From positions 4,290 through 68,289 of the forward strand of contig JAXGWO010000004.1 of assembly GCA_040773245.1 (NCBI GenBank): a DNA stretch of 64,000 nucleotides, in the 5' to 3' direction. The DNA is from PVC group bacterium. GTDB lineage: Bacteria; Auribacterota; Erginobacteria; Erginobacterales; Erginobacteraceae. This document shows, piece after piece, positions 46,255 to 62,668 of the stretch; the stretch's first letter is position 1, and every line of letters begins with the position of its first letter. The notes beneath the pieces are model-generated. The model was given only the letters and a program-made list of their open reading frames with translations, had not been told where the DNA came from and ran no database searches. Both the position numbers and the translations under genes were made by a program.

Positions 46255-47706
46255 ATGGAATCGCAGCGGATCAGGACCATCGCCGGCTGGACGAAGGGCA
46301 ATCTGGAGCGGGGCGACCCGGAAGGGACGGCGTCCGGGGTCGCCATCGACAGCCGGACCATCCGTCCCGGGGAGATCTTCCTCGCCCTGGCGGGAGGGAG
46401 GTATGACGGTCACGACTACGCCGCCGCCGCCCTCGATTCCGGGGCGGCCGGGGTGATCCTCTCCCGACCGGCGGCGGAGATCGAGCGGCGGGAGGGAGAG
46501 TTCGCCCTGATCCGGGTCGGGGCCGGACTCCCGGCGCTGGCCGGTCTGGCCCGGGGTTACCGGAGACTGTTCAGCCCGGCGGCCATCGCCGTCACCGGGA
46601 GCAACGGGAAGACCACGACCAAGAACCTGATCGGGCTCTTCCTGGGGGAGGATAGGGCGACCCTGACCGCCCCCGCCAGCTACAACAACCTGATCGGCGT
46701 CTCCCTGACCATCCTCCGGCTCTCCGGGACGGACCGGGCGGCGGTCTTCGAGCTGGGCACCAACCATCCCGGGGAGATCGGGGAACTGGCCCGCCTCTGC
46801 CGTCCCTCGCGGGCGGTGATCACCAATATCGGCCCCGCCCACCTCGGCCGTTTCGGCAGCCTGGAGGCGGTCGCCGCCGAGAAGGGGCAGGTGCTGGAGG
46901 CCCTGGAAGGAGAGAAGACAACCTTCCTCAACACCGACGATCCGCGGGCGGCGGCCCTGGCCGGCCGGGCCCCCGGGGAGGTGATCGGTTTCGGTCTGGA
47001 GCCGCCGGCCCGGGTCCGCGCCCTGGATATCCGCCGCCGCCCCGGCGGGGTCAGTTTCCGGGCCACCCTCCGGGGAGGCGAACTTCCGATCGAGGCCCCG
47101 CTGCCCGGGCGGCACAATATCCTCAACCTGCTGGCCGCCCTGGCGGTTGGGGATCACTTCGGGGTCGATCCCGAGGCGATGCGCCAGGCGGCGCTGAAGG
47201 CCGCCCTTCCCCCCGGACGGATGGAGAGAATCAGGCTGGGTGGGGCGGAGGTCATCAACGACGCCTACAACGCCAACCCGGTCTCGATGACGGCGGCCCT
47301 GGCGGCCTGGCTGGAGATGGACTGCCCGGGAAGAAGGATCCTGGTCAGCGGGGATATGAACGAACTGGGCGATTTCTCCGAAGCCGCCCATCGGGAATGG
47401 GGAGAGCGGTTGTCCGGATCGGGGCTCGACACCCTGATTTTTCTCGGTCCCCTCTCCCGGGCGGCGGCCGAAGCCGCCCGGGCCACCGGCGGGACCGTCC
47501 GGGTGGAGACCGTCGATGACTGCCGGGAAGCGGCGGAGATTTTAAATGCCATCGTCCGTCCCGGGGACAGCGTCCTGCTCAAGGGCTCGCGGAAGATGGG
47601 GCTGGAGGAGATCGTGGAGATACTGAGAAGTCAGAAGTCGGAGGTCAGAAGTCAGAATACAGAATACAGAATTCAGAAGGGGGAGCCGGGGGCCGGGTCA
47701 TTCTGA
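46255..47706 (+). CDS. murF: UDP-N-acetylmuramoyl-tripeptide--D-alanyl-D-alanine ligase.
   Basis: GSNGKTTTKNLI P-loop and Mur ligase domains. The C-terminal approximately 25 aa read into the heptamer repeat array. Confidence 0.9.
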   Translation: MESQRIRTIAGWTKGNLERGDPEGTASGVAIDSRTIRPGEIFLALAGGRYDGHDYAAAALDSGAAGVILSRPAAEIERREGEFALIRVGAGLPALAGLARGYRRLFSPAAIAVTGSNGKTTTKNLIGLFLGEDRATLTAPASYNNLIGVSLTILRLSGTDRAAVFELGTNHPGEIGELARLCRPSRAVITNIGPAHLGRFGSLEAVAAEKGQVLEALEGEKTTFLNTDDPRAAALAGRAPGEVIGFGLEPPARVRALDIRRRPGGVSFRATLRGGELPIEAPLPGRHNILNLLAALAVGDHFGVDPEAMRQAALKAALPPGRMERIRLGGAEVINDAYNANPVSMTAALAAWLEMDCPGRRILVSGDMNELGDFSEAAHREWGERLSGSGLDTLIFLGPLSRAAAEAARATGGTVRVETVDDCREAAEILNAIVRPGDSVLLKGSRKMGLEEIVEILRSQKSEVRSQNTEYRIQKGEPGAGSF

Positions 47707-47745
47707 CTTCTGAATTCTGTATTCTGAATTCTATATTTCAACAAG
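47621..47745. repeat. Heptamer-family palindromic array: CAGAAGT/CAGAATA x8, inverted as ACTTCTG/TATTCTG.
   Basis: AGAAGTCAGAAGTCGGAGGTCAGAAGTCAGAATACAGAATACAGAATTCAGAAG ... CATTCTGACTTCTGAATTCTGTATTCTGAATTCTA between murF and mraY. Confidence 0.8.
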
Positions 47746-47755
47746 GACTTTAACT

Positions 47756-48862
47756 ATGTTCTACCACATCTTCTACCCGCTCCGCGATCTCTGGTTCGGC
47801 TTCAATATCTTCCGCTACATCACCTTCCGGTCGGCCGCGGCGGCCCTGACCGCCTTCCTGATCAGCGTGATCTTCGGTCCCGCCCTGATCCGGAAGCTGC
47901 GGGAGCTGAAGGTCGGGGAGAAGGTCCGGAACGGGAAGTGCTATGAAGAACTCTACCGCCGCCACAAGGACAAGGAGGGGACCCCGACGATGGGCGGGCT
48001 GATCATCATCCTGGCGGTGATGGCGGCCACGGTTCTCTGGGCCCGCCTGGAGACGACCCAGGTGATCATCATCGTGATCTCCTCCCTCTGGCTGGGAACC
48101 ATCGGTTTCATCGACGATTGGATCAAGCTGAAGCGGCTCGGCCGGCGGGGGCTGCGGGGCCGGGTCAAGCTGGCCGGGCAGGTGGTCCTCGGGCTGGCGA
48201 TCGGTCTCTTTCTCACCTACCATCCCGAGACTTCCGCTTACGCCGGTCACCTCTGGGTCCCCTTCTACAAGCACGCCGTCCTGGAGAACATCGGCCTCTT
48301 CTCCATCCCCCTGGTCATCCTGGTCCTGGTCGGTTCGACCAACGCCGTCAACCTGACCGACGGCCTCGACGGCCTGGCCGTCGGCTGCCTGGCGATCGCC
48401 GCCCTCGCCTTCGCGGCGCTGGCCTACCTGATCGGCCACATCGAGTTCGCCGCCTACCTCCAGGTACCCTACATCCCGGGGGCCGGGGAACTGACGGTCT
48501 TCTGCGCCGCCCTGGGTGGCGCCGGCCTCGGCTTCCTCTGGTTCAACGCCTACCCGGCCGAGATCTTTATGGGCGACACCGGGGCCCTGGCCTGCGGGGG
48601 AGCGATCGGAACGGTGGCGGTGCTCCTGAAGAAGGAACTCTTCCTCCTCCTGATCGGGGGGGTCTTCGTGGTCGAGGCCCTCTCGGTGATCCTCCAGGTG
48701 GCCAGCTTCCGCCTCCGGGGCGGGAAGCGGATCTTCCTGATGGCCCCGCTCCACCATCACTTCCAGATCAAGAACATCCCGGAGAACAAGATCACCGTCC
48801 GCCTCTGGATCTGCGCGGTGATCTGCGCCCTGATCGGACTGGGGGCGCTGAAGATGCGATGA
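47756..48862 (+). CDS. mraY: Phospho-N-acetylmuramoyl-pentapeptide transferase.
   Basis: 10-TM MraY with conserved DD and HHH motifs (NAVNLTDGLDGLA). Confidence 0.95.
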   Translation: MFYHIFYPLRDLWFGFNIFRYITFRSAAAALTAFLISVIFGPALIRKLRELKVGEKVRNGKCYEELYRRHKDKEGTPTMGGLIIILAVMAATVLWARLETTQVIIIVISSLWLGTIGFIDDWIKLKRLGRRGLRGRVKLAGQVVLGLAIGLFLTYHPETSAYAGHLWVPFYKHAVLENIGLFSIPLVILVLVGSTNAVNLTDGLDGLAVGCLAIAALAFAALAYLIGHIEFAAYLQVPYIPGAGELTVFCAALGGAGLGFLWFNAYPAEIFMGDTGALACGGAIGTVAVLLKKELFLLLIGGVFVVEALSVILQVASFRLRGGKRIFLMAPLHHHFQIKNIPENKITVRLWICAVICALIGLGALKMR

Positions 48863-50232
48863 AAATCGGGGATGCCGCCATAATCGGACTGGGCCGAAGC
48901 GGCGAGGCGGCGGCGGAACTGCTCCTGGAGAGGGGGGCCGCAGTGACCGTCTTCGACGACCGGGCCGGGCCCGCCCAGCAGGAGAGAGCCGTCCGGCTGA
49001 AGGAGAAGGGAGCGGTTCTTCACCTGGGAGCGGAGTCGGGGAAGGGGTGGGGCGGCTTCCGGACGGTGATCGCCAGCCCCGGGGTCCCCCCCGGCCATCC
49101 GCTGCTGGCCCGGGCGCGGCGGGAAAAGGTCCCGGTCATCTCCGAGGTCGAACTGGCCGGCCGCTTCCTGAAAGGACGGCTGATCGCGGTCACCGGGACC
49201 AACGGCAAGACGACCACGGTCAGCCTGCTGGTCGAGATCTTCCGCCGGGCGGGGGCGAAGGCCGCGGCGGCGGGCAATATCGGCTACCCGCTCTGCCGGC
49301 TGGTCCGCGAAGGCAATGATTGCGCGGTGGTGGTGGCGGAGATCAGTTCCTTCCAGCTGGAACAGGTCGAAACCTTCCGGCCGGGGAGCGCGGTCTTTCT
49401 CAACCTGGCGCCCGATCATCTCGACCGCTACCCGGGGATGAAGGAGTACGGGGAGGCGAAGCTGAAGATCTTCGCCCGCCAGGGGAGGGGGGATCGGGCG
49501 ATCTACCCCGAGTCCCTGGCCGCTTTCGTGGAGCGGACCCTGCCCCCCGGCGTGGAGAAGGTAACCTGGGGCGGGAAACGGGGAACGGTACGGTTCGAGC
49601 GGGGTGAACTTCGTTACTATTCCCCCGGCGGCGGGGGAACGATCTGCCGCGAAGAAGATATCGCGGGCCGGGGCGCGGCCTTCCGCGAGAACGTCCTGGC
49701 CGCCGCCGCCGTCGCCCTCCGGGAAGGGGTGGCGGCGGGGGATATCGCCGCCGTCCTGGGGACCTTTGCCGGCATCCCCCACCGGCTGGAGTACGTCGCC
49801 GGGGCGGCGGGGGTGGAGTTCTACAACGACTCCAAGGCCACCAACCCGGCGGCGGTGGCCGCGGCCCTGGAGTCTTTCTCCCGTCCGGTCATCTGGCTGG
49901 CCGGGGGGAGCGACAAGAGTCTCGACTTCTCCCCCCTGGGGCCGCTTCTGCCGGGACGGGTGAAGCGGGCGATTCTCCTGGGAGAGACCCGGGAGAAGCT
50001 GCGTTCCCTGGCGGAGGGGAGAGTAGCCTTCCAGGTTGTCTCCAGTCTCCCGGAGGCGGTCGGCGCGGCCTGGCAGGCAGCCGCCCCGGGGGACGTGGTC
50101 CTTCTCTCCCCCGGGTGCGCCAGTTTCGATATGTTCCCCGACTACCGGGCCCGGGGGGAGCTCTTCAAATCCCTGGTCGGGGAACTGGTGTCCCGGGCCG
50201 GAAAGGCCCAACGGAGTCAATGTCCCCGGTAA
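48859..50232 (+). CDS. murD: UDP-N-acetylmuramoylalanine--D-glutamate ligase.
   Basis: N-terminal Rossmann GLGRSGEAAA and GTNGKTTT P-loop. ATG overlaps mraY's stop. Track ORF 48118-50232 has a spurious 5' extension. Confidence 0.9.
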   Translation: MKIGDAAIIGLGRSGEAAAELLLERGAAVTVFDDRAGPAQQERAVRLKEKGAVLHLGAESGKGWGGFRTVIASPGVPPGHPLLARARREKVPVISEVELAGRFLKGRLIAVTGTNGKTTTVSLLVEIFRRAGAKAAAAGNIGYPLCRLVREGNDCAVVVAEISSFQLEQVETFRPGSAVFLNLAPDHLDRYPGMKEYGEAKLKIFARQGRGDRAIYPESLAAFVERTLPPGVEKVTWGGKRGTVRFERGELRYYSPGGGGTICREEDIAGRGAAFRENVLAAAAVALREGVAAGDIAAVLGTFAGIPHRLEYVAGAAGVEFYNDSKATNPAAVAAALESFSRPVIWLAGGSDKSLDFSPLGPLLPGRVKRAILLGETREKLRSLAEGRVAFQVVSSLPEAVGAAWQAAAPGDVVLLSPGCASFDMFPDYRARGELFKSLVGELVSRAGKAQRSQCPR

Positions 50233-50253
50233 AACCGGGCTGATTTATCCGGG

Positions 50254-50356
50254 GTCGGTATCGCTATCGGGATCGGAATCGAAGGTGTTCGCGGTTCGAT
50301 AGCGATAGCGATAGCGATACCGATACCGATAGCGATAGCGATTCCGATAGCGATTG
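50254..50356. repeat. Hexamer-family palindromic array, the largest in the window with about 15 units.
   Basis: GGTATCGCTATCGGGATCGGAATCGAAG ... CGATAGCGATAGCGATAGCGATACCGATACCGATAGCGATAGCGATTCCGATAGCGATTG between murD and the LysM lipoprotein. Confidence 0.8.
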
Positions 50357-50395
50357 TTGATGGGAACAATACCCCCAAGGGGGGAGGAGGGAGAG

Positions 50396-50830
50396 ATGAT
50401 GAATAAGACCAGGATGGTATTTTACGGATCGCTGGGAGCCCTGGTGTCGGTGCTGATCTGGAGTTTTATCGGCGGCTGCCACACTTCTTCCCGGCCGCTG
50501 CCCCCGGTGCCTCCGGCCGAAGAACCGGCCCCCGAAGAGATCGCCCCGCCGGCCCCGGTCAGCCAGGAGACCCTGATCGAGGAGGGGATCACGGCCGGCG
50601 ACCAACCACCGGTTGCGGCCGAACCTCCGCCGGCCCCGAAGGAAGCGCCGGCGGCCGAAGCGGTCGAAGCCCCAGCGCCGGCTCCTTCCCGGACCCACAC
50701 GGTGGCCAAGGGCGATACCCTCTGGGGGATCAGCAAGCAGTACGGGGTGACCACGAAAGCGATCGAAGAGGCGAACAAACTCGCGGATCCCGACCGCCTC
50801 TCGGTGGGGCAGCAGCTGGTCATCCCCTGA
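50396..50830 (+). CDS. LysM-domain lipoprotein with a Pro/Ala-rich linker, inserted in the dcw cluster.
   Basis: Signal peptide with a lipobox-like FIGGC, a PAPEE-rich low-complexity linker and a C-terminal LysM (HTVAKGDTLWGISKQYGV...VGQQLVIP). GGAGG RBS. Confidence 0.7.
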   Translation: MMNKTRMVFYGSLGALVSVLIWSFIGGCHTSSRPLPPVPPAEEPAPEEIAPPAPVSQETLIEEGITAGDQPPVAAEPPPAPKEAPAAEAVEAPAPAPSRTHTVAKGDTLWGISKQYGVTTKAIEEANKLADPDRLSVGQQLVIP

Positions 50831-50858
50831 ACCCCGGGATGAAGAGACGGACGGAGAT

Positions 50859-52055
50859 TTGATGCGCGCCGCAATCCAGACCGGGAGCGAAAGCTGGCGG
50901 CCCGGCAATCATCTGCCGCTGATCCTGATCTCCCTGGTGGCCGGCCTGATCGGGCTCGGCCTGCTGATGATCTACAGCTCTTCCGCCGTCTATTCCCTCG
51001 ACACCTACGGCGACCGCTACTTCATCATCCGGCGCCAGCTGCTCTGGCTGGGGGCGGGACTGGCCGCCGCCGTCGCCGCCGCCCGGATCGATTACCGCCG
51101 GCTCCAGGGGAAGAGCCGGCTGCTGCTCCTGGCCGGGGTCGTTCTCCTGGCGGCGGTCTTCGTCCCCGGCTTGGGCCGGAGCGGGGGCGGCGCCCGGCGC
51201 TGGCTGGCGGCGGGGGTGATCAGTTTCCAGCCCGCCGAACTGGTGAAGTACCTGGTGGTCATCTATCTGGCCGACCTCCTCTCCCGCCGCCAGCGGGAGA
51301 TAACCCGCTTCGGCACCGGTTTTCTCCCCCCGCTGGCGGTGATCGGGCTGCTCAGCGGCCTGGTGCTGATCCAGCCCGACCTGGGGACCGCCCTCTCCAT
51401 CGCCGCCATCGGCCTGCTCCTGCTCTATCTCGGCGGGGCCCGGCCGGCCCATCTCGGAGCCCTCTGCCTTACGGCCCTCCCGGTGCTGGCGGTGATGGTG
51501 GTCCGGGTCGGTTACCGGATGCGGAGGATCCTGGCCTTCGTCGATCCCTGGGCCGATCCCCGGGGGGCCGGTTTCCAGATCATCCAGTCGCTGATCGCGC
51601 TGGGCTCGGGCGGTCCGACCGGACTGGGACTGGGCGAGAGCCGGCAGAAGCTCTTCTACCTCCCGGCGGCGACCACCGACTTCATCTTTTCCATCCTTGG
51701 CGAGGAACTGGGTTTCCTCGGCAGCGCCCTGACCGTCGCTCTCACGGCGGGGATACTGATAACCGGTTTCCGGATCGCCGGCCGTTCGAGCGATCTCTTC
51801 GGGCAGCTCCTGGCCCGGGGAGTGACCGCGATGCTGGTTCTCCAGGCTTTGATCAATATGGGGGTCTCCTGCGGGATGCTTCCGACCAAGGGGCTGCCTT
51901 TCCCCTTCATCAGTTACGGCGGCTCCAACCTTTTGGCCAGCTGCCTGGCGGTGGGGCTGCTGATCTCCGTCGCCGTTCACTCCGACAACGAATGCCGCCG
52001 GCGGGGCCGCCGGCAGGCGATCCGTCTCTTTCAACCAAGGACCGGGGGACAGTGA
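50859..52055 (+). CDS. ftsW: SEDS-family peptidoglycan glycosyltransferase FtsW.
   Basis: 10-TM SEDS protein; track ORF 50859-52055. Start is TTG at 50859 or ATG at 50862. Confidence 0.9.
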   Translation: MMRAAIQTGSESWRPGNHLPLILISLVAGLIGLGLLMIYSSSAVYSLDTYGDRYFIIRRQLLWLGAGLAAAVAAARIDYRRLQGKSRLLLLAGVVLLAAVFVPGLGRSGGGARRWLAAGVISFQPAELVKYLVVIYLADLLSRRQREITRFGTGFLPPLAVIGLLSGLVLIQPDLGTALSIAAIGLLLLYLGGARPAHLGALCLTALPVLAVMVVRVGYRMRRILAFVDPWADPRGAGFQIIQSLIALGSGGPTGLGLGESRQKLFYLPAATTDFIFSILGEELGFLGSALTVALTAGILITGFRIAGRSSDLFGQLLARGVTAMLVLQALINMGVSCGMLPTKGLPFPFISYGGSNLLASCLAVGLLISVAVHSDNECRRRGRRQAIRLFQPRTGGQ

Positions 52056-52234
52056 TGAAAGACCACGAGCTCTGCCCGTACTTCGAAACCTGCCTGATCA
52101 GCAACCTCCTCAAGACCATCGATGTCCCGGAGGTCCTGCGCTACTGCGCCGGCAATTATCAAAACTGTCGCTACCTTCCGCGGTCGGCCCGGAGCCGGCC
52201 GTTCGCGGATAAACGGGAGCCCGCCAAGGTATGA
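52055..52234 (+). CDS. Small four-cysteine protein of 59 aa, translationally coupled between ftsW and murG.
   Basis: ATG at 52055 overlaps the ftsW stop; its stop overlaps the murG ATG (ATGA). Sequence MKDHELCPYFETCLISNLLKTIDVPEVLRYCAGNYQNCRYL. Confidence 0.5.
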   Translation: MKDHELCPYFETCLISNLLKTIDVPEVLRYCAGNYQNCRYLPRSARSRPFADKREPAKV

Positions 52235-53346
52235 GACTGGCCCTGGCCGGAGGCGGCACCGGGGGACACCTGGCCCCGGCCATCGCGCTCCTCGAAGAAC
52301 TGGGGAACCGGGGGGGAGTTCCCGGGGGCCTCGTCCTGACCTCCGGCCCGCCCGCCGCCGCGCTGGAGCGGTCCGCCCCCGGCAGCCGGGTCGTCTCCAT
52401 CGACTCCGCCCCCCTCGTCCTGAGCCGTCCCTGGCGGCTCCCGGCCCGGCTGCTGAGGATCCGGCGGGGGTACCGCCGGTCGCTCGCGGCCCTGCGGAAG
52501 TTCCGGCCCGACCTGGTGATCGGGTTGGGGGGATACGTCTCCGCCCCCCCTCTCCTGGCCGCCCGGCGGCTGAAGATCCCGGCGGTCTGCCACGAGCAGA
52601 ACCGGGTGCCGGGCCGGGCCAACCGTCTTCTGGCCCGGGGCCCGGTCCGGGTTATCTCCGCCTTCCCCCTGCTCCCGGGGAGGATCGACCCCGCCCGGGT
52701 GACCTGCCTGGGTGCGCCGGTCCGCCGGGCGGCGCTGGCCCCGGCCCCGGAGGGGACCGCCGGGGCCTGGGGCCTGGAACCGGGGAGGTTCACCCTCCTG
52801 GTCCTCGGGGGGAGCCGGGGGGCGAGGGCGATCAACCGGCTGCTGGAGACGTCGGCCGGCGCGCTGGCCGGTCCCTGCCCGCCGGAGCAAGTCCAGGTTA
52901 TCCACTGCGCCGGCGCGGAGGACTCCGAACGGCTGCAGCGGGCTTACCGGGTGGCGGGGCTGGCGGCCGCCGTCTTCCCCGGCCTGGAGGAGATCGGCTG
53001 GGCTTACTCCCTGGCCGACCTGGCGGTGAGCCGGGCCGGGGGGGCGACCCTGAGCGAGCTGGCCGCCTGGGGGCTGCCCTCCCTCCTCATCCCCTATCCC
53101 TTCGCCACCGAGAACCACCAGATGGAGAACGCTCTCTATTTCCGGGCGGCGGGGGCCGCGGTGGTCTTCCCGGAAGGGGAGATCGGCGCACCGGTTCTGG
53201 CCCGGGAGATTTTCCGGATCCGCTCCGACGGGGAACTCCGCCGGAAGATGTCCGCCGCAGCCCGGAGTCTGCATCGCCCCGCCGCGGCGGAAAAGATCAT
53301 CGATTGCCTGGAGAAAATGCTGGAGGAGTATGATCAACCGCGATGA
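52231..53346 (+). CDS. murG: Undecaprenyldiphospho-muramoylpentapeptide beta-N-acetylglucosaminyltransferase.
   Basis: LAGGGTGGHLAPAIAL motif and GT28 fold. Confidence 0.9.
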   Translation: MRLALAGGGTGGHLAPAIALLEELGNRGGVPGGLVLTSGPPAAALERSAPGSRVVSIDSAPLVLSRPWRLPARLLRIRRGYRRSLAALRKFRPDLVIGLGGYVSAPPLLAARRLKIPAVCHEQNRVPGRANRLLARGPVRVISAFPLLPGRIDPARVTCLGAPVRRAALAPAPEGTAGAWGLEPGRFTLLVLGGSRGARAINRLLETSAGALAGPCPPEQVQVIHCAGAEDSERLQRAYRVAGLAAAVFPGLEEIGWAYSLADLAVSRAGGATLSELAAWGLPSLLIPYPFATENHQMENALYFRAAGAAVVFPEGEIGAPVLAREIFRIRSDGELRRKMSAAARSLHRPAAAEKIIDCLEKMLEEYDQPR

Positions 53347-54766
53347 CAGGATGCTGCTCTTCGGCCGGCCCGACGTCGTCTCCGTCCACCTGGTCGGGGC
53401 CGGCGGAGCCGGGATGAACGTCCTGGCTCGGATCCTGCTCACGCTCGGTTTGGAGGTCAGCGGATCCGACGTCCGGCTCACCCCGGTGACCGAGCGGCTG
53501 GCCCGCCGGGGGGCACGGATCGTCCCCGGGCACCGGGACAGTCTCCCCGGGCGGCCCGACCTGGTGGTTTACTCCTCCGCGGTCGCCGCCGACAACCCGG
53601 AACTCGCCCGGGCCCGGCAACTGGGGATCCCGATCCTCCACCGGTCGCAGGTCCTGGCCGGCCTGACCCGCCTGAAGCCTTCGGTGGCGATCGCCGGAAG
53701 CCACGGGAAGACCACCACCGCCGCCCTGATCGCCTGGATCCTGGTCTCCGCCGGCCGCCGGCCCTCCCTGGCCCTGGGCGGGGAGGCGATCGGCCTGGAA
53801 GACCACCCCGGCTGGGACGAGGGCGGTCTCCTGGTGGCGGAGGCGGACGAGAGCGACGGTTCGCTGGAGCGTCTCTCCCCCCGGGCGGAGGTGATCACCG
53901 GGCTCGACCTCGACCACGTCGATTACTATTCCAGCTGGGAGAAGCTGATCCTGACCTTTTCCCGGTTCACCGAGCGCCTTCCCCGCGACGGGCTGCTGGT
54001 GGTGAACGAGAGCACTCCCCATCTCCACCGCCTGATCCGGGGCGGCTTCCGGGTGGTCTCCTACGGGCTCGGGGAGGGGGCGAACCTGCGCGGCCGGGTG
54101 GTCTCCCTCGACGCCGAGGGGAGCCGCTTTACGGTCTGGCGGGGCGGCTGGCAGCTGGGGGAGGCGCGGCTGCCCCAGCTCGGCCTCTGCGGGGTGGTCA
54201 ACGGCCTGGGGGCGATCGCCTTCTGCCGGGAGGCGGGGGTCTCCTTCGAGGAGATCGCCCGGGGGCTGGAGACCTTCCCGGGCGTGAGGCGGAGGCTGGA
54301 GATCAGGTCCCGCCGCCCGTTCCTCCTGGTCGAGGATTACGCCCATCACCCGGTCGAGATCGCCGCCGCATTGGCGGCGGTCCGCTCGGCGAACCCGGTC
54401 CGGATCTGGTGCGTCTTCCAACCCCACCGCTACAGCCGGACCCGGCACTTCGCCCGGGCCCTGGCCGAGTCCCTGCTGGGTGCGGACCGGATTATCCTGG
54501 CCGACCTCTACCCGGCCTTTGAGCAGCCGTTGCCGGGGGTGAGTTCCCGGCTCATTCTCGAGACCCTCAACCAGCGGGGGCGGGCCGACGCCCGGCTGCT
54601 GGAAAAGCCGGCCATCCGTTCACTTCTCGAACGGGAGGCCGCCCCGGGCGACGCGGTGGTGATTATGGGGGCGGGTGATATCGGCTCCCTGGCCGGGGAA
54701 CTGGCGCGGTCCGGGGCCGGCTCCCCGTCCTCCCTTCCGGGGGCTGGAGAAGAAGTTGAAGAATAA
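53330..54766 (+). CDS. murC: UDP-N-acetylmuramate--L-alanine ligase.
   Basis: GAGMNVLARIL Rossmann, GSHGKTTT P-loop and Mur ligase domains. Confidence 0.9.
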   Translation: MINRDDRMLLFGRPDVVSVHLVGAGGAGMNVLARILLTLGLEVSGSDVRLTPVTERLARRGARIVPGHRDSLPGRPDLVVYSSAVAADNPELARARQLGIPILHRSQVLAGLTRLKPSVAIAGSHGKTTTAALIAWILVSAGRRPSLALGGEAIGLEDHPGWDEGGLLVAEADESDGSLERLSPRAEVITGLDLDHVDYYSSWEKLILTFSRFTERLPRDGLLVVNESTPHLHRLIRGGFRVVSYGLGEGANLRGRVVSLDAEGSRFTVWRGGWQLGEARLPQLGLCGVVNGLGAIAFCREAGVSFEEIARGLETFPGVRRRLEIRSRRPFLLVEDYAHHPVEIAAALAAVRSANPVRIWCVFQPHRYSRTRHFARALAESLLGADRIILADLYPAFEQPLPGVSSRLILETLNQRGRADARLLEKPAIRSLLEREAAPGDAVVIMGAGDIGSLAGELARSGAGSPSSLPGAGEEVEE

Positions 54767-55736
54767 GGCAGCAACAGGGTCAAGGCCCGATTCTCTCCCG
54801 GATCCCGGCGCGGTCGGGCTGGTCGGGGTTCTCCTCGGCGGACCCTCGGCCGAGCGGGAGATCTCCCTGAAATCGGGCCGGGCGGTCTCCCGGGCCCTCC
54901 GGGAGGCCGGGTACTCCGTGGTGGAGATCGGGGAGGAGGGGGATATCGGGGCCGGGATCAGGTCGCATCCCCTGGCCGCGGCCTTCATCTCCCTCCACGG
55001 CCGGTTCGGGGAGGACGGGACGGTCCAGGGGATGCTGGAGGAGATGAATATCCCCTATACCGGTTCGGGGGTGGAGGCCAGCCGCCGGGCGATGAACAAG
55101 GCCGCCGCCCGCCGGCTGTTCGAGCGGGCGGGTCTTCCGGTCCCGCCGGGCCGGGTTTACGGCCCCGGATCCGGCCCCCGGAACTCTCCCTTTCCGCTTC
55201 CGGTGGTGGTGAAGCCGGCCCGGGAAGGATCAAGCATCGGTCTCAGCCTGGCCCGGACCCCGGACGAGTTCCGGGCGGCGGTCGCCCGGGCCCGGGAGCA
55301 CGACCGGGAGATCCTGGTCGAAGAGTACATCCCGGGGCGGGAACTGACGGTCGGGGTGCTCGACGACCGGCCGCTCCCCCTGGTCGGGATCCGGCCGGGA
55401 AACCAATTCTTCGATTTCGAGGCCAAGTACGTCCCGGGAAAATCCCGGTTTGAAGTCCCGGCGCATCTCCCCGACCCTCAGTACCGGGAGATCCAGAGAC
55501 TGGGCCTGGCGGCCCACCGGGTTCTGGGTTGCTTTTCCTACTCCCGGGCGGATATCATCCTCGGACCCGGCGGCCGGCCCTTTCTCCTGGAGGTGAACAC
55601 GATCCCCGGTTTCACCGCGACCAGCCTCCTGCCCCAGGCGGCGGCCGCCGCCGGCATCGACTTCACCAGCCTCTGCCGCCGCCTGCTGGCGGCGGCCCTG
55701 ACCCGGGGGAACTACCGCGGCCGAAGGGACAAATGA
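54756..55736 (+). CDS. ddl: D-alanine--D-alanine ligase.
   Basis: ATP-grasp with GEDGTVQG and EVNTIPG motifs. The start is uncertain (TTG at 54756 assumed); track ORF 54675 begins inside murC. Confidence 0.8.
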   Translation: MKNKAATGSRPDSLPDPGAVGLVGVLLGGPSAEREISLKSGRAVSRALREAGYSVVEIGEEGDIGAGIRSHPLAAAFISLHGRFGEDGTVQGMLEEMNIPYTGSGVEASRRAMNKAAARRLFERAGLPVPPGRVYGPGSGPRNSPFPLPVVVKPAREGSSIGLSLARTPDEFRAAVARAREHDREILVEEYIPGRELTVGVLDDRPLPLVGIRPGNQFFDFEAKYVPGKSRFEVPAHLPDPQYREIQRLGLAAHRVLGCFSYSRADIILGPGGRPFLLEVNTIPGFTATSLLPQAAAAAGIDFTSLCRRLLAAALTRGNYRGRRDK

Positions 55737-55903: not shown

Positions 55904-56740
55904 ATGAAGTGGCTGATCCTGAGCAGCAAGGTAACCCGGCCCCCCCGGCGGCTGCGGGCCGCCGCCCCGGCCCGCCGGCGGCGGAAGAAGGACCCGGTCC
56001 CGGATCGGGGCTCCGTCTCCCGGCCGCGATCGGCCGGCGGTGCGGTCCTGGTCCTGATCCTACTGGCCGCGCTGGTGGGGGGGCTCTGGTGGTACTTCCG
56101 CCACTCGGAACTCTTCACGGTCGAGGAGATCGAGGTTGTCAACTCCCACGTCTACTCCCCCGAGGAGATCATCGAGATGGCCGGGATCGAGACCGGGGGG
56201 AATATATTCCCGCTGGATTCCGCTGCCGCCCGGGAGGCGATTATCCGGCACCAGGATTTCCGCGAAGCCCACGTCCGGAAGATCTTTCCTTCCACCGTTC
56301 GGATCGAGGTGATGGAACGGGAGCCCCGGGCCCGGGTCATCTTCGGTCAATACTACACCATCGACGAAGAGGGGGTGGTGCTCGGTCCCAAGAAGTCGTC
56401 CTCGGAGCGGAACCTCCCCGCGATCCGCGGGCTGAAGCTGGTGAACAAATCGAACGATCTCTATCCTCCGGAGAAGCGGGCCGCCTCGCTGGAGCTGCTG
56501 AAGGAACTGGAACGGCTGGAGATCGAGAACCTGATCCGGATCGAGGAGATCAGCGTCGATTTTTCCGACCGGATTGAATTGAAGGCGGAAGGCAGGCTGG
56601 ACATCACCCTGGGGCCGGAAAGTTACGGCGAGCAGCTGCTGAGATTGAAAGCGGTCCTGGAGAAACTGGGGCCGGACCTTGCCCGCGCCCCCCAGATCGA
56701 TCTCCGTTACTCCAAGGTCCCGGTGCGATTCCGGGATTGA
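55904..56740 (+). CDS. ftsQ: Cell division protein FtsQ.
   Basis: Basic N-terminus, single TM helix and a POTRA domain (FTVEEIEVVNSHVYSPEEI). Confidence 0.8.
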   Translation: MKWLILSSKVTRPPRRLRAAAPARRRRKKDPVPDRGSVSRPRSAGGAVLVLILLAALVGGLWWYFRHSELFTVEEIEVVNSHVYSPEEIIEMAGIETGGNIFPLDSAAAREAIIRHQDFREAHVRKIFPSTVRIEVMEREPRARVIFGQYYTIDEEGVVLGPKKSSSERNLPAIRGLKLVNKSNDLYPPEKRAASLELLKELERLEIENLIRIEEISVDFSDRIELKAEGRLDITLGPESYGEQLLRLKAVLEKLGPDLARAPQIDLRYSKVPVRFRD

Positions 56741-56776: not shown

Positions 56777-58003
56777 ATGAGCAAGAAAGGGGAGATTGTC
56801 GCCGGTCTCGACGTGGGGACGACCAAGATCTGTCTCCTGGTCGGCGAACGGACGGGGGAGGATGAAGTGCGCATCCTCGGCGTGGGCAGTCAGCCCTCGT
56901 TCGGGATGCGGAAGGGAGAGGTGGTGAACGTGGAGCGGACCGTGGAGTCGATCCGCAAGGCTCTCGAACAGGCCGAGGACACCTGCGGGATGAAGATCGA
57001 TTCGGCCTACGTCGGGATCGCCGGGGGCCACGTGGAAAGTTATAACCGCCGGGCGATCCTGCCGATCGTCAACCCCGCGGCCGGCGTCAGCCGGAAGGAT
57101 ATGTCCGCCGCGGTGGAGGCGGCCGGCCGGATCTCGCTTCCCCCGGACCGGGAGATTATCCACGTCCTGGCCCAGGACTACTCGGTCGATGACCGGACGG
57201 GGATCATCGAACCGGAGGGGATCCAGGGTTCGCGGCTGGAGGCCAACGTCCACCTGGTGACCGCGCGGACGCCGGCGGTGGAGGATATCCTCAACTGCGT
57301 CCGGCAGGCCGGCCTGGGAGTGGCGGAGATTATGCTCCAGCAGCTGGCCTCCAGCCTGGCGGTGATGACGGACGAGGAGCAGGAGTCGGGGGCGATCCTG
57401 ATCGATATCGGGGGGGGCACCACCGACTACGTCTTCTTCCGCAACAACATAGTCCGCCACACCCGGGTTCTCCCGGTGGGCGGAGACCACGTGACCAACG
57501 ACATCAGCCTGGGGATGAAGCTGCGGATCCCCCAGGCCGAGGAGTTGAAGAAGAGATCCGCCTCGGCCCTCTCCGCCCGGGTGGGGGAGGACGAGCAGCT
57601 CTCCCTCCCCGCGGCCCTGGTCCGTTCGTCCGGCGGGCCGTCGCGGAAGACCCTCTGCCGGATCGTCGAGCTGAGACTCGCCGAACTCTTCCAGCTGATC
57701 CGCCGGGATCTGGAAAAGGCCGAACTCTTCCAGAACATCGGCAGCGGGATCGTCCTGACCGGGGGAGGGGCCCTGCTCGGGGATATCGCGCTGCTGGCGG
57801 AGCGGGAAACGGAGCTCCCGGTGCGGCTCGGCCTCCCCCACGGCTTCTGCGGCCTGAGGGAGGTGATCGACAGCCCGGTTTTCGCGACCGCGGCGGGCCT
57901 GGTCAAGTACGGCCTGAATTGCGGGCAGACCCGCTCGACCCGGCCGCCCGGCCGGGGGAGCGTCTTCGGCGTACTCCGGCGGTGGCTGGATCGTTATTTT
58001 TAA
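56777..58003 (+). CDS. ftsA: Cell division protein FtsA.
   Basis: Actin-like ATPase, GLDVGTTKICLLVG phosphate-1 motif, 408 aa. Confidence 0.9.
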   Translation: MSKKGEIVAGLDVGTTKICLLVGERTGEDEVRILGVGSQPSFGMRKGEVVNVERTVESIRKALEQAEDTCGMKIDSAYVGIAGGHVESYNRRAILPIVNPAAGVSRKDMSAAVEAAGRISLPPDREIIHVLAQDYSVDDRTGIIEPEGIQGSRLEANVHLVTARTPAVEDILNCVRQAGLGVAEIMLQQLASSLAVMTDEEQESGAILIDIGGGTTDYVFFRNNIVRHTRVLPVGGDHVTNDISLGMKLRIPQAEELKKRSASALSARVGEDEQLSLPAALVRSSGGPSRKTLCRIVELRLAELFQLIRRDLEKAELFQNIGSGIVLTGGGALLGDIALLAERETELPVRLGLPHGFCGLREVIDSPVFATAAGLVKYGLNCGQTRSTRPPGRGSVFGVLRRWLDRYF

Positions 58004-58027: not shown

Positions 58028-59188
58028 ATGAGCAAGCAGGAGGAACCAGGCAAGTTAGCCCTCTGGGGGGTCGGCGATCAGGGGATCCGGGTCATCTCCT
58101 CCCTGCCGGAAGAGGTCCGGCGGCGGGTCCGGCCGGCGGCGGTCGACTCCGACCTCCAGTCCCTGATCTGCGGGCCGACCGTGCAGAAGATCAGGATCGG
58201 GTCCAAGTCCGGCCCCGCCAACGGTCCGGGCGGGGATCCGGAAAAACTGCTGAAGGCATTCCGGGAGAGCGAGGAGAAGATCCGGGAGAAACTCTCCGAG
58301 GCCCAGATCCTGCTCGTGGTCGGCGGACTCGGGGGAGGGGTGGGGAGCGTCCTGATCCCCGCCCTCTGCCGCTGCGCCCGGCAGCGCAAGATCATCACCC
58401 TTGTCTTCGCCACCCGCCCTTTTGCCTTTGAGGGGAAGAAGAGAAGCCGGATCTACCAGCAGGCGAGAAAGGAGATCGAGGAGAGCGGGGTCGGGATGGC
58501 CTGTTTCTCCCTCGACCGGCTGGTCGGCCGGATCGAGGAAGAAATACCCCACCAGGAGGTCTTCCATCGCTGCGACCGGATCCTGAGGGACGCGGTGGAG
58601 TGCGCCGTCGCCTACCTCTTGTCCCCGCCCGACCAGGGCGGCGATCGGTCCTCCCTGGGGGACGTTTTCGCCGCCTCCGGGGAGGCGGTGATGGGCGTGG
58701 AAGAGGCGGCCGGGCCGGAGGAATTGGTGAAGTCGGCCAAGGCGGCGCTTTCCTCCCTGTCGCTCTCCGCCGCCGAACTGGCCGGGGTCCGGGGGGTGCT
58801 GGTCCAGATCGACGGACCGGAAGCGATCCCCTTCCGCCGGGTGCAGGAGGCGATCGGTTCGATCTCCCGGCTGCTCGGCGAAGAGACCGACCTGCTTTAC
58901 ACCGTCACCCGGCGGGAAGAGCCCGGGTGGAAGATCAGTTTCCGCCTTTTGGCCGGGGGGATCGCCTCCGGCCCGCCCCGCGGCGCGGGCTCCCCGATCC
59001 CGGTGACCCTGAACCGCGACGGCCACCGCCCCCGGCAGGAGAAGATGGATTTCGACAAGTTCACCCGGGGAGTGTTCGCCCCGACCGAGCCGACCTCCCG
59101 GGACGGCGAGGACCTGGATATCCCGACCTTCATCCGGCAGGGCGTCCAGCTGGAAGGGGAAGGAAAAGACGCCCGGTCGGTGCCATGA
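58028..59188 (+). CDS. ftsZ: Divergent FtsZ homologue with degenerate GTP-binding and catalytic motifs but a conserved C-terminal peptide.
   Basis: Aligns along its length with FtsZ (AVDSDLQSL, TRPFAFEGKKR, GVRGVLVQI, C-terminal DLDIPTFIR). The G1 box reads GVGDQGIRV instead of GVGGGGGNA, and the T4 loop reads GGLGGGVGS instead of GGGTGTG. Confidence 0.8.
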   Translation: MSKQEEPGKLALWGVGDQGIRVISSLPEEVRRRVRPAAVDSDLQSLICGPTVQKIRIGSKSGPANGPGGDPEKLLKAFRESEEKIREKLSEAQILLVVGGLGGGVGSVLIPALCRCARQRKIITLVFATRPFAFEGKKRSRIYQQARKEIEESGVGMACFSLDRLVGRIEEEIPHQEVFHRCDRILRDAVECAVAYLLSPPDQGGDRSSLGDVFAASGEAVMGVEEAAGPEELVKSAKAALSSLSLSAAELAGVRGVLVQIDGPEAIPFRRVQEAIGSISRLLGEETDLLYTVTRREEPGWKISFRLLAGGIASGPPRGAGSPIPVTLNRDGHRPRQEKMDFDKFTRGVFAPTEPTSRDGEDLDIPTFIRQGVQLEGEGKDARSVP

Positions 59189-59904
59189 TCCTGGTCAAAG
59201 CCGGCAAGATCCTGCTCGGGATTCTCCTCCTCCCGGCCTGCGTGGCGGCCACGGCGGCCTTCGGCCGGGAAGTCTTCCCGGTCCTCTTCCGGGAGATCTG
59301 GTTTCTCGCCGGCCTGTTCGCCTACCTGCTCCTCCTGGGAATCTTCCAGCAGCCGATCCGGACCTACATCTTCGGCCACGAGCTGACCCACGTCCTCTGG
59401 GTCTGGCTCTTCGGCGGGCAGGTCAAGGGTTTCAAGGCGGCGGCGCGGGGGGGCGAGGTGAGGACCACCCGCTCGAATTTCCTGATCTTCCTCTCCCCCT
59501 ATTTCTTCCCGCTCTACAGCGCCCTGGCGATCGGGATCTACCTCCTCCTCGGCCTGATCTGGGAGCTGCCCCCGGCGTCGCGCGGCTACCTGAGTTTCGC
59601 CCTCGGCTTCACCTGGGCCTTCCACCTGACCCTGACCATCTACGTGATCATCCAGGGGCAGCCCGACATCTGGGCGGCGGGACGGGTCTTCTCCTTCCCC
59701 TTCATCTACCTGGTGAACGTGGTGATCCTGGCCGCCCTGATCATCTTCGTCACCCCGCGATCCCCCACCCGCTTTTTCTTCGCCTCGCTCTGGGAACAGA
59801 CCCGCGAAGATTACCTCTCGATCTGGAACGATGGGCCCCAGTTCTGCCGCCGGCACTACCAGCTCTTCCGGGACAAGGCTTCCGCATTCCTGGCCGGAAG
59901 CTGA
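59185..59904 (+). CDS. Polytopic membrane protein with an intramembrane HExxH motif; putative zinc metalloprotease, DUF3267/M50-like.
   Basis: ATG overlaps the ftsZ stop. About 6 TM helices and FGHELTHVLW within a TM segment. Confidence 0.65.
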   Translation: MILVKAGKILLGILLLPACVAATAAFGREVFPVLFREIWFLAGLFAYLLLLGIFQQPIRTYIFGHELTHVLWVWLFGGQVKGFKAAARGGEVRTTRSNFLIFLSPYFFPLYSALAIGIYLLLGLIWELPPASRGYLSFALGFTWAFHLTLTIYVIIQGQPDIWAAGRVFSFPFIYLVNVVILAALIIFVTPRSPTRFFFASLWEQTREDYLSIWNDGPQFCRRHYQLFRDKASAFLAGS

Positions 59905-60814: not shown

Positions 60815-62668
60815 ATGAATTTTATCGAAGAGATCGGAAACCGGATCCTGGTCGGGGACGGGGCGATGGGGACCTACCTCCTCGCCCGGGGGGTCTCTCC
60901 CGGCCAGAATTTCGAGGCTCTCTGTCTGACCGACCCGGAGCTGATCCGGAGCGTCCACCGGGAGTACGTGGCCGCCGGGGCCGACCTAATCGAGACCAAC
61001 ACCTTCGGGGCCAACCGGATCCGTCTCCGCCCGGCCGGTTACGGGCGCCAGGCGGCCAGGATCAACCGGGAGGCGGCCCAACTCGCCCGGTCGGCCGCCG
61101 GGGACGCGGTCCTGGTCGCCGGGGCGGTGGGGATGATCCCGGCTCCGGACCGGGAACCGCCCGCCCCGGGCGGTCCCGCCGGGGAGGAACTGCTGGAGGC
61201 CTACCGGGAGCAGATCGCGGCCCTGGCCGAGGGCGGGGTGGACCTGATCATCCTGGAGACTTTCGAGGAGTGGGAGAACCTCTCCCTTGCCCTCCGGGCG
61301 GCCCGGGAAGCTTCGCCGCTCCCGGTGGTCGCCCAGATGGCCCATTCCAACCGGGGGATCTCCATCTTCGGGGCCACGGCCGAGGAGTGCTGCCGCCGGG
61401 CGCTGGATTCCGGGGCGGCGGTCTTCGGCAGCAACTGCGGCGGGGGCTTCGCTTCGGTGGAGGCGGTCCTGCGGGGGGCGGCCCGGGTGGAGGGAGCGAC
61501 CCTTTCGGCCTTCCCCAACGCCGGGGTCCCGGAGCTGGTCCAGGGGAGGATAATCTATCCCTCCGGTCCGGATTACTTCGCCGGCAAGTGCCGGGAGCTG
61601 ATCGATCTCGGCGCCCGGCTGATCGGCGGCTGCTGCGGTACCAGCCCCCGCCACATCCGCGCCCTGCGCCGGACCCTTGACGGGAGGGTTTCCCCGCCGG
61701 TTCGGCCCCGTCCGCGGCTCGCCGCCGCCCCGGCGCCGGCCCTCCGGCTTTCGGTCGAGGGGGGATTCCTCGCCGGACTGCGGGGAGACCGTCTCCCGAT
61801 CATCGTCGAGATCGATCCCCCGACGGCTCCTGACCTGGAAAAGGTGGTGGAGGGGGCGGTGGCGGTGAAGAACGCCGGGGCGGACGCGGTCTCGATGGCC
61901 GAGAACCCCCTGGCCGCCCTCCGGGTCTCGCCGGTCTCCGCCGGGGCCGAGGTCCGTCGCCGGGCGGGGATCCAGGTCATACCCCACCTGACCGCGCGGG
62001 ATCACAGCGTCCTCGGTCTCCAGTCGCTTTTGCTGGGGGCGGCGGTCTCCGGGCTGGAGGCGGTCCTGGCGGTGACCGGCGACCCGGCGGGGAAGGGGGA
62101 CGGGACCGGGGAACGGGGGGTCTTCGCCGTCAACAGCGTCCACCTGGCCGGCCTGGCCGACCAGCTCAACCGGGGCCACCTCCTCTCGGGGCAGGACCTG
62201 GCCCGGCCGACCGACCTCTCGATCGGGGTGGCCTTCAACGCCAACGCCGCCAACCTCCCGGCCGAGGCCGACCGGCTGCGGAAGAAGGCGGCGGCCGGCG
62301 CCCGCTTCGCGATGACCCAGCCGGTCTTCTCCGCCGCCCGGGCGCGGGAAGTGATCGCCGCCGGCGAGGGGATCGGGGTCAGGATCTTCATCGGGGTCTA
62401 TCCCCTCCTCTCGCTGAGAAACGCCGACTTTATGGCCAACGAGGTCCCCGGGATTACCATCCCGGGGGAGGTCCGGAAACGGCTGGAAGATTCCGGAGAC
62501 CGGGCCGCCCAGCGCCGGGCCGGTTTGGAGATTGCCTGGGAACTGATCGAGGAGGTCCGGGTGGAGATCGACGGACTCTACCTGGTCAGCCCCCTCAACA
62601 TCTGGTCCCTCCCCCGGGAACTGGTCCGGAGGGTCCGGGCCGCGGAAAAAACTAAAAGCCTTGACTGA
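60815..62668 (+). CDS. Bifunctional homocysteine S-methyltransferase / 5,10-methylenetetrahydrofolate reductase.
   Basis: N-terminal Hcy-binding pterin-type barrel (VGDGAMGT, Cys ligands GSNCGGG...GGCCGT) and a C-terminal MetF-like domain. Confidence 0.85.
   Translation: MNFIEEIGNRILVGDGAMGTYLLARGVSPGQNFEALCLTDPELIRSVHREYVAAGADLIETNTFGANRIRLRPAGYGRQAARINREAAQLARSAAGDAVLVAGAVGMIPAPDREPPAPGGPAGEELLEAYREQIAALAEGGVDLIILETFEEWENLSLALRAAREASPLPVVAQMAHSNRGISIFGATAEECCRRALDSGAAVFGSNCGGGFASVEAVLRGAARVEGATLSAFPNAGVPELVQGRIIYPSGPDYFAGKCRELIDLGARLIGGCCGTSPRHIRALRRTLDGRVSPPVRPRPRLAAAPAPALRLSVEGGFLAGLRGDRLPIIVEIDPPTAPDLEKVVEGAVAVKNAGADAVSMAENPLAALRVSPVSAGAEVRRRAGIQVIPHLTARDHSVLGLQSLLLGAAVSGLEAVLAVTGDPAGKGDGTGERGVFAVNSVHLAGLADQLNRGHLLSGQDLARPTDLSIGVAFNANAANLPAEADRLRKKAAAGARFAMTQPVFSAARAREVIAAGEGIGVRIFIGVYPLLSLRNADFMANEVPGITIPGEVRKRLEDSGDRAAQRRAGLEIAWELIEEVRVEIDGLYLVSPLNIWSLPRELVRRVRAAEKTKSLD

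Follow-up and report, generated by a model that had tools for sequence, protein, structure and literature searches.

A dcw-encoded FtsZ with altered nucleotide-pocket and catalytic loops in a member of Candidatus Auribacterota

The stretch of DNA analysed here (64,000 nucleotides, positions 4,290 to 68,289 of contig JAXGWO010000004.1 in assembly GCA_040773245.1; hereafter the window) carries a dcw cluster with a divergent ftsZ gene at its 3' end. We identify this gene as the FtsZ orthologue that a member of Candidatus Auribacterota, in the PVC group, carries in its dcw cluster, and it is maintained by selection. Its product and the proteins of its clade are natural, selected FtsZ that lack two of the three conserved residues of the T7 loop (the Asn and the second Asp) and also the T6 Asn and the T4 Thr. 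Judged from the sequence, GTP hydrolysis by the window FtsZ is likely to be impaired, and a guanine nucleotide is probably still bound. Our overall reading, to which we give about an even chance, is that the protein would be a nucleotide-bound, FtsA-tethered scaffold with very slow or no GTP turnover.

Gene identity and nucleotide-pocket motifs

The open reading frame (ORF) starts at an ATG, directly preceded by the Shine-Dalgarno-like GGGAGGG, and its GC content by codon position (0.69/0.48/0.88) resembles that of the adjacent genes. The encoded protein matched Pfam Tubulin (PF00091) at 62.3 bits (gathering threshold, GA, 33) and FtsZ_C (PF12327) at 26.0 bits, marginally under the GA of 27. 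Against TIGR00065, the NCBI equivalog model of FtsZ, it scored 129.6 bits and did not reach the cutoff of 295.2. Its best matches in the PDB were all FtsZ, with that of Staphylococcus aureus aligned at E=1e-34 over residues 10-371. Moreover, an AlphaFold2 model, obtained with 32 relatives as input, showed a confident core (pLDDT, the predicted local distance difference test, mostly >85), and the top Foldseek matches of this model were all FtsZ structures (TM 0.85-0.88 over ~305 residues). By sequence and predicted fold, then, the ORF is an FtsZ. The window protein and its relatives are only 25-30% identical to canonical FtsZ, compared with 42-54% for canonical FtsZ across phyla, and one member of the clade (P0017) is labelled 'hypothetical protein' at NCBI.

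The window FtsZ has in common with canonical bacterial FtsZ (TIGR00065; S. aureus, Bacillus subtilis, Escherichia coli) the fold, the order of the Tubulin and FtsZ_C domains, the linker, the C-terminal FtsA-binding peptide and the position after ftsA, as well as the Asp and Gln of T2, the PFxFEG..R of T5 and the F...D of H7. It differs at T1, T4 (Thr to Val), T6 (Asn to Leu) and T7 (Asn to Gly, with the second Asp gone). Membership of the FtsZl-1/2 families, which have a Tubulin_2 domain, no FtsZ_C domain, no C-terminal peptide and a non-dcw context (Makarova and Koonin 2010), was rejected, as the Pfam matches are Tubulin and FtsZ_C without Tubulin_2 and the context is dcw. The features of the gene are the following:

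58028-59188, forward strand: ftsZ, divergent Auribacterota type, 386 amino acids (Pfam, TIGR00065, PDB match, AlphaFold2 fold)
58067-58090, forward strand: T1 loop GVGDQGIR (canonical GVGGGGxN), residues 14-21 (alignments)
58145-58159, forward strand: T2 loop DSDLQ (canonical NTDxQ), with D42 and Q44 kept (32 of 32 clade members)
58223-58240, forward strand: T3 loop GPGGDP, intact in the window and scrambled in the closest relatives (variability percentiles)
58331-58351, forward strand: T4 loop GGGVGSV, residues 102-108, where canonical FtsZ has the tubulin signature GGGTG[ST]G (alignments)
58415-58444, forward strand: T5 loop RPFAFEGKKR, conserved, with the ribose contact E135 and with R139, equivalent to S. 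aureus R143 (clade alignment)
58505-58519, forward strand: T6 FSLDR, residues 160-164, with the guanine-contacting Asn replaced by Leu (L162; clade alignment)
58562-58576, forward strand: start of H7, FHRCD, with the stacking Phe (31 of 32) and the base-binding Asp (32 of 32) kept and a clade-specific Cys (31 of 32)
58631-58657, forward strand: T7 synergy loop DQGGDRSSL, residues 202-210 (canonical LxNxDFADV), of the same length as the canonical loop
59036-59137, forward strand: C-terminal extension (Q..DF.K.TRG.F...EPT) and predicted FtsA-binding peptide GEDLDIPTFIR (clade alignment)

Motifs were counted in the 32 members of the clade and in a canonical set of 87 sequences. Residues of the window protein are given in its own numbering and canonical residues in that of E. 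coli, for which the reference sequence used had 382 rather than 383 residues; the numbering was verified solely by comparison with S. aureus residues given in PMC8936486, from which it is offset by one. T1 carries the changes G20 to D, G21 to Q, G23 to I and N24 to R; across the clade G14, G16 and G19 are invariant, position 17 is D, G or N, and position 18 is W or Q. The T4 changes are T108 to V and G111 to V, and the loop fails the PROSITE pattern PS00227 ([SAG]GGTG[SAT]G, as quoted in PMC1845146). In 31 of 32 clade members the T4 Thr position holds V, L, I, F or A, a Thr being found in P0017 only. The T6 change, N165 to L, was likewise seen in 31 of 32 members, compared with Asn in 79 of the 87 canonical sequences. 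In T7, N207 is replaced by Gly (29/32), D209 is kept as D206 (25/32), and D212 is replaced by Ser in the window and by S, A, G, L or E across the clade. With respect to the synergy signature GxxNxDxxD with its two acids, the Asn and the second Asp are thus gone and the first Asp is present; the loss of N207 and D212 contrasts with the retention of D209, D45, Q47 and R142.

Other parts of the pocket are intact in the window FtsZ, namely T3 (GPGGDP) and the residues D42, Q44, E135, R139, F179 and D183. D42 and Q44, which correspond to S. aureus D46 and Q48, are each found in 32 of 32 clade members, the P, F, F, E and G of T5 are invariant, and the R139 position is K in 19 and R in 12 of the 32. 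As T3 and the contact residues of T2, T5 and H7 are intact, the pocket is only partly degenerate. Two cysteines were also noted in this region: C114 (58367-58369), in an LCR sequence after T4, is invariant in the clade, and C182 (58571-58573), in the FxxCD of H7 by the nucleotide pocket, is present in 31 of 32 members. A Cys in H7 is also found in the FtsZ of Terrimicrobiaceae (FAACD).

The C-terminal tail has Q337, R347, G348, F350, P355, G360, E361, D362, D364-T367 and R370 invariant in the clade, and L363 and F368 near-invariant. In alignments its GEDLDIPTFIR falls on the DIPxF peptide at the C-terminus of S. aureus FtsZ and on DYLDIPAFLR of E. coli, and it is predicted to bind FtsA/ZipA. 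The block that precedes this peptide (Q..DF.K.TRG.F...EPT, residues 337-359; 59036-59104) has an RGRF.K.EPT counterpart in the GEDLDIPTF-bearing FtsZ of P0033, P0034, P0124 and P0128, and may lengthen the tail for partner binding in a way that is characteristic of PVC-like lineages.

Much of this had been proposed in an initial annotation of the DNA. Its assignment of the ORF after ftsA to FtsZ agrees with the Pfam and PDB matches and with the ftsA gene upstream (56777-58003), and the peptides AVDSDLQSL, TRPFAFEGKKR, GVRGVLVQI and DLDIPTFIR are all found as it quoted them, the last, which it described as a conserved C-terminal peptide, being nearly fully conserved across the clade. The substitutions that it listed in T1, T4 and T6 were confirmed by a residue check and by the alignments, and its statement that T7 retains at most one Asp is accurate, D209 alone being kept, as D206. 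A check for shifted motifs was also run. Because the alignments to S. aureus and canonical FtsZ are ungapped through T1-T7, the glycine-rich loops are not displaced, and an artefact of shifted motifs was rejected.

Distribution of the clade and selection on ftsZ

A search of 5.8 billion proteins returned 32 clusters at 37-100% identity, followed by an abrupt fall to 25-30% for canonical FtsZ. When 1.84 billion representatives were searched with a profile, only ~7 clusters (at 50% identity) scored >424 bits, and everything below had canonical motifs; the two counts differ in their clustering level, ~32 being obtained at 90% identity and ~7 at 50%. A scan of GTDB species genomes yielded ten loci of the window type, one of which (L001) belongs to Candidatus Erginobacter occultus, phylum Candidatus Auribacterota, PVC group, the others being labelled 'PVC group bacterium' (three) or 'uncultured bacterium' (six). 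Since the same changes are carried by ~32 independent clusters, they are a lineage trait and not a private defect, and the latter was rejected together with sequencing error.

An FtsZ profile run over the window and the ten related loci, 186 kb together, matched a single tubulin-family ORF in each of them and no second one. Among canonical FtsZ, the one closest to the clade (P0034/P0124) is 42-54% identical to FtsZ of unrelated phyla. It sits in a murG-murC-murB-ddl-ftsQ-ftsA-ftsZ cluster of its own in a different assembly, and for that reason it was rejected as a hidden Auribacterota paralogue. We found no literature on the FtsZ of Auribacterota, the descriptions of this phylum making no mention of FtsZ, nor on the loss of FtsZ catalytic loops, and no publication that joins FtsZ, the T7 loop and PVC.

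The 32 members of the clade share 39 invariant positions, among them the pocket residues G14, G16, G19, D42, Q44, G103, P131, F132, F134, E135, G136, D163, R164 and D183; F179 of H7 is kept in 31 of 32. The states specific to the clade are conserved as well: W13, the T6 Leu (31/32), a hydrophobic or branched residue at the T4 Thr position (31/32), the Cys before the H7 Asp (31/32), G204 and G205 in T7 (29/32 each) and the invariant C114. The position of the second T7 Asp, on the other hand, has no preferred residue (S, A, G, L, E). Ratios of non-synonymous to synonymous substitution (dN/dS; Nei-Gojobori, window against two relatives) were 0.32-0.35 for ftsZ and 0.28-0.38 for ftsA, with similar values for ftsQ and murG; they serve as a relative comparison only, because a strong GC bias at third codon positions (GC3 ~0.88) depresses dS and so inflates the ratio for all genes. 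The invariant positions and the neighbour-like dN/dS together indicate that ftsZ is maintained by selection. A faster evolution of FtsZ than of FtsA was considered as a signal specific to the clade and was set aside as not discriminating: the FtsZ-core identity minus the FtsA identity averaged -7.3 in Auribacterota pairs and -4.7 in mostly verrucomicrobial control loci, and these controls are biased towards divergent FtsZ.

The clade was divided into the subclade of the window (P0001-P0012, at least 61% identity) and the deeper members (P0013-P0032). The deeper members still show conservation of T3 (GxGxGGD), of the glycines in T4 and of the first Asp in T7, whereas in the window's subclade the same elements rank high in core variability, at the 80th-96th percentile for T3, the 84th for G107, the 79th for G109, the 99th for G111, the 97th for D209 and the 91st for D212; in canonical FtsZ these sites lie at the 0-36th percentile. 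Close relatives of the window FtsZ have Q, L, C or A as the third Gly of T4, and a scrambled T3. The base, ribose and Mg-side residues are invariant in both subclades. The elements for phosphate sensing and catalysis have specifically been released from selection, apparently in two steps.

Nucleotide binding, hydrolysis and competing explanations

In filaments of S. aureus FtsZ, D210 swings to place the catalytic water, with D213 and G72 forming its environment, N208 coordinates K+ and makes a bridge to D46 and Q48 of the lower subunit, and R143 behaves like an arginine finger (PMC8936486). The changes N208L, D210N and D213N abolish assembly of that protein, whereas R143K and Q48A assemble into stabilised filaments with a GTPase activity ~6-fold lower (PMC8936486). 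In the pocket, T2 and T3 touch the beta- and gamma-phosphates and T4 the alpha- and beta-phosphates, the base is recognised by H7, and N165 of T6, conserved in FtsZ and tubulin, binds guanine (PMC8456036). Of the active site, the window FtsZ has the half that the lower subunit supplies (D42, Q44, R139), and its contacts to base and ribose are in place. It has lost the Asn and the second Asp that T7 of the upper subunit contributes, together with the hydroxyl of the T4 Thr and the T6 Asn in the pocket, and its T1 contains bulky residues.

The initial annotation held that such a protein should be unable to bind or hydrolyse GTP normally. As regards hydrolysis we agree, since the motif losses are clade-wide and affect residues with documented roles, and impairment is likely. 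As regards binding the claim goes too far, as D42, Q44, E135, D183, G14, G16, G19 and G103 are invariant, and F179 is kept in 31 of 32 members, down to 37% identity. A guanine nucleotide is probably still bound, because the invariant D183 and E135 would otherwise be hard to explain. We propose that this nucleotide would be a structural cofactor more than a switch, that FtsA would tether the protein to the membrane, and that the result would be a division scaffold that turns over GTP, and hence treadmills, very slowly or not at all. The machinery for hydrolysis and gamma-phosphate sensing would thus be degenerating in an orthologous and selected FtsZ, and the relaxed T3, T4 and T7 of the window's subclade fit the loss of both functions.

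Mutant and tubulin proteins provide comparisons for this scaffold reading. The S. aureus changes R143K, Q48A, D210N, D213N and N208L affect the same positions as those altered in the window clade, and R143K is the natural state of 19 of its 32 members. However, the laboratory mutants carry single changes, several of which abolish assembly, whereas those of the clade are combined, natural and under selection. The E. coli alleles ftsZ2 (D212G) and ftsZ3 (T108A) reportedly impair catalysis and lie at the same positions. As for tubulin, the T7 of beta-tubulin lacks the catalytic acid, and the GTP at the N-site of alpha-tubulin is structural and is not hydrolysed. The N-site of alpha/beta-tubulin is therefore a case of bound nucleotide without T7 activation, as proposed for the window FtsZ; in tubulin one interface of the heterodimer is affected, whereas in the window FtsZ it would be every interface of a presumed homopolymer. 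We also take the T1 positions that are non-Gly in the clade to be those that are non-Gly in tubulin (GQCGNQ). This equivalence rests on structure-based alignments; a comparison by hhalign of the clade profile with a beta-tubulin sequence aligned T3-T4 only, and weakly, and did not reach T1.

Several observations weigh against a nucleotide-bound scaffold of this kind. The retention of D206 (S. aureus D210), D42, Q44 and R139 could support a real GTPase with a remodelled T7. Conversely, the T108A change in E. coli is reported to abolish GTP binding (Dai et al. 1994), and some close relatives have the T4 loops GGLVAS or GGQVAS; such non-Gly residues inside the loop suggest that binding itself may be failing. 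Furthermore, as N208L or D213N alone blocks assembly in S. aureus, polymerisation of the window FtsZ cannot be assumed. Finally, a second ftsZ may be present elsewhere in the genome, the scan having covered 186 kb.

The first of these points leads to the possibility of a fully working and dynamic FtsZ, in which a remodelled T7 (GGD) and a tubulin-like G-x-x-G T1 would compensate for the losses and leave GTP binding, hydrolysis and treadmilling near normal. We consider this unlikely, although it would account for D206 in 25 of 32 members, for the invariant D42 and Q44 and the R or K at 139, and for the conservation of the new T7 motif itself (G204-G205-D206...L210). The T1 loop, with its non-Gly positions at those of tubulin, would also agree with it, although hhalign did not confirm this match. 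Non-canonical T7 loops are present, moreover, in metagenome-assembled genomes (MAGs) of Verrucomicrobiota (Chthoniobacter, Terrimicrobiaceae), and cultured members of these groups divide normally. In an active enzyme, however, the remaining Asp, T3 and the T4 glycines would not be expected among the most variable core sites, as they are in the window's subclade; two residues found almost throughout FtsZ and tubulin, the Asn of T6 and the Thr of T4, have been lost, and the D212 position has no conserved replacement. To the opposite possibility, a true pseudo-GTPase that binds no nucleotide and would link FtsA to the divisome, independently of GTP, as a scaffold or adaptor, we give the same low probability. 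The changes T108 to V and N165 to L, the bulky D, Q or W in T1, the Q, L, C or A at the third T4 Gly and the scrambled T3 of close relatives, and a score far under the TIGR00065 equivalog cutoff all point in that direction. Yet the invariance of E135, D183, D42, Q44 and glycines of T1 and T4, with F179 in 31 of 32 members, down to 37% identity is hard to explain without a ligand, and the window protein itself has kept the glycines of T3 (GPGGDP) and T4 (GGGVGS).

The remaining explanations place the division function elsewhere or deny it to the gene. Divergent second copies of FtsZ are known in some genomes of the candidate phyla radiation (CPR; PMC9871819), and the window gene could in principle be a specialised paralogue, with a canonical FtsZ elsewhere in the genome performing division. 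This is improbable, since the gene stands in the ancestral ftsQ-ftsA-ftsZ position wherever upstream DNA is present and still encodes the FtsA-binding peptide. In addition, the 186 kb of the window and related loci contain no other tubulin-family ORF, and the closest canonical FtsZ (P0034/P0124) belongs to another assembly, where it has a dcw cluster of its own. That the gene is decaying or already a pseudogene, and is being lost as ftsZ was in Planctomycetota and Chlamydiota, would be in line with the repeated loss of ftsZ in the PVC group (PMC5147048) and with the relaxed catalytic sites, but we regard it as very improbable indeed: the ORF is intact in ~32 clusters with 39 invariant residues, dN/dS (~0.33) is as in the neighbouring essential genes, GC by codon position is normal, a Shine-Dalgarno-like motif precedes the start codon, and the stop codon overlaps the ATG of the next gene.

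Divergent FtsZ in other lineages and the dcw neighbourhood

Motifs were tabulated for all the fetched loci, and a non-canonical T7 at the dcw position was found to be common in the PVC group. In MAGs of Terrimicrobiaceae, Chthoniobacterales and 'Spartobacteria' the loop reads PMAVAVPDL, PLPIAVNDL, PMPIGLADL or LIHLGFDDL, with N207 and D209 lost and D212 kept, and T1 is GxGNAG. In Opitutales (L069, L072) T7 is LINQDFGSL, without the second Asp. The loci of the variant that lacks the T7 Asn and first Asp are the following:

L010-L026, L029, L030, L035, L038-L043, L045-L048 and L050: Verrucomicrobiota FtsZ without the T7 Asn and first Asp
L052, L053, L057, L058, L060, L062, L073 and L077: the same set, continued, with FtsZ at ~10001-11200 in most

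Verrucomicrobial FtsZ (Chthoniobacterales, Terrimicrobiaceae, Opitutales) resemble that of the window in belonging to the PVC group, in their dcw position, in the peptide GEDLD[IV]PTF and in a non-canonical T7, and also in the Ser of the tubulin signature, the F at the start of T6 and the H7 Cys (FAACD). Unlike the window FtsZ they keep T108 and N165, and as N207 and D209 are lost and D212 is kept, it is the opposite Asp that survives; T1 is GxGNAG, compared with GxG[DGN][WQ]G in Auribacterota. Verrucomicrobial FtsZ have been placed among the most divergent (PMC9871819, PMC12283558), and the Ser in the tubulin signature of Verrucomicrobium has been reported (PMC1845146); we found no publication that describes the T7 variants of Verrucomicrobiota.

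Two further groups from uncultured lineages share the GEDLDIPTF peptide with the window FtsZ and combine either N165 to L or M with D212 to R, or T108 to V with the loss of N207 and D209. The former (P0110, P0114-P0120; ~370 amino acids) has also lost the guanine-binding Asp and the Phe of H7, and its T7 is YIxLDxERx; one of its members, P0115, is encoded at 6983-8089 of L085 (GCA_965354415.1), within ddl-ftsQ-ftsA-ftsZ. Both groups differ from Auribacterota in their substitution sets, the P0114 group for instance in the loss of the H7 Asp, and at 24-29% identity neither is closely related to the Auribacterota clade. The second group, the L081/L071 type, has T4 GGGVGSG and T7 P.xVSLGDL. In L081, on a 293-kb contig, the FtsZ (P0033, 10001-11299) has T4 GGGVGSG and T7 PISVSLGDL, the upstream ftsA (8751-9970) is apparently split over two frames, perhaps through a frameshift or through an indel from long-read sequencing, and murC and murB are fused.

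Among the FtsZ tabulated, those of Auribacterota are the most extensively altered and the only ones to combine changes in T1, T4, T6 and T7. The initial annotation held that a pseudo-GTPase or a scaffold not driven by GTP would be unusual as the sole dcw-encoded FtsZ; the word calls for some qualification, since a degenerate T7 at the dcw position is also found in other PVC lineages. As such loops occur in several Verrucomicrobiota and in other uncultured lineages, the Auribacterota FtsZ stands at the extreme end of a series and is neither unique nor an isolated oddity.

In model bacteria, GTP hydrolysis by FtsZ drives the treadmilling that distributes septal wall synthesis. Whether FtsZ hydrolysis is universally needed is debated, and the question has so far been probed mainly through laboratory mutants. 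The window ftsZ may be an example from nature of a cell that divides with an FtsZ whose GTP hydrolysis is slow or absent. We tentatively put forward a broader proposal, aware that it may well fail, in which Auribacterota would divide with a single FtsZ that does not hydrolyse GTP and in some members does not sense the gamma-phosphate, as a static FtsA-tethered scaffold with a full FtsW/FtsI divisome and with peptidoglycan present; together with the T7 series of Verrucomicrobiota they would be surviving intermediates of the PVC route to FtsZ loss (Planctomycetota, Chlamydiota). If this were true, hydrolysis-driven treadmilling would not be universally required for FtsZ-based division. In any case, the graded series from canonical FtsZ through Opitutales and Chthoniobacterales/Terrimicrobiaceae to Auribacterota frames the loosening and loss of FtsZ dependence in the PVC group. 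As the FtsA-binding tail and a complete dcw setting are kept, the proteins of the clade are ready-made for biochemical tests. Moreover, curated FtsZ models miss proteins of the window type (129.6 bits against a cutoff of 295), so that surveys may wrongly score such genomes as lacking FtsZ.

The other genes of the division region are the following:

41015-55736, forward strand: mraZ, mraW, a small ORF, ftsI, murE, murF, mraY, murD, ftsW, murG, murC and ddl (Pfam; ddl by homology)
55904-56740, forward strand: ftsQ (Pfam POTRA_1 and FtsQ_DivIB_C)
56777-58003, forward strand: ftsA, canonical (TIGR01174 371 bits, cutoff 176; Pfam FtsA and SHS2_FTSA)
59185-59904, forward strand: polytopic membrane protein of 239 amino acids with an HExxH motif (FGHELTH), its ATG overlapping the ftsZ stop (ATGA)

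The dcw cluster of the window is complete, with ftsZ at its 3' end after ftsQ-ftsA; ddl was assigned through 54-80% tblastn matches to genes of related loci that have Dala_Dala_lig domains. The order murC-ddl-ftsQ-ftsA-ftsZ-membrane protein-ORF-metH/MTHFR-gapdh is kept as far as each locus reaches. The ftsQ-ftsA-ftsZ position was found wherever upstream DNA is present, that is, in nine of the ten loci and in L083, L086 and L087, and ftsZ is adjacent to the downstream membrane-protein gene in 10/10 loci of a first comparison and 12/12 of a second.

In all 12 loci of the Auribacterota type this HExxH membrane-protein gene lies directly 3' of ftsZ, and it was absent from the remaining loci that were searched. 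Its product is better conserved (53-87% identity) than FtsZ, with a weak match to Peptidase_M50B (E=0.028) and no NCBIfam match, and the family is widespread (537 matches, all 'hypothetical'). The protein could act on the divergent FtsZ as a partner or regulator particular to this lineage. A small ORF of the window cluster (50354-50830, forward strand) lies between murD and ftsW, a slot that in relatives is taken by a gene for a LysM-domain protein of 140-157 amino acids (L083 2082-2504, L086 1943-2377, L087 1936-2409). Downstream of the division genes, the window has a fused homocysteine S-methyltransferase/MTHFR gene (60815-62668, forward strand, 617 amino acids), which is found in the same place in most of the longer Auribacterota loci.

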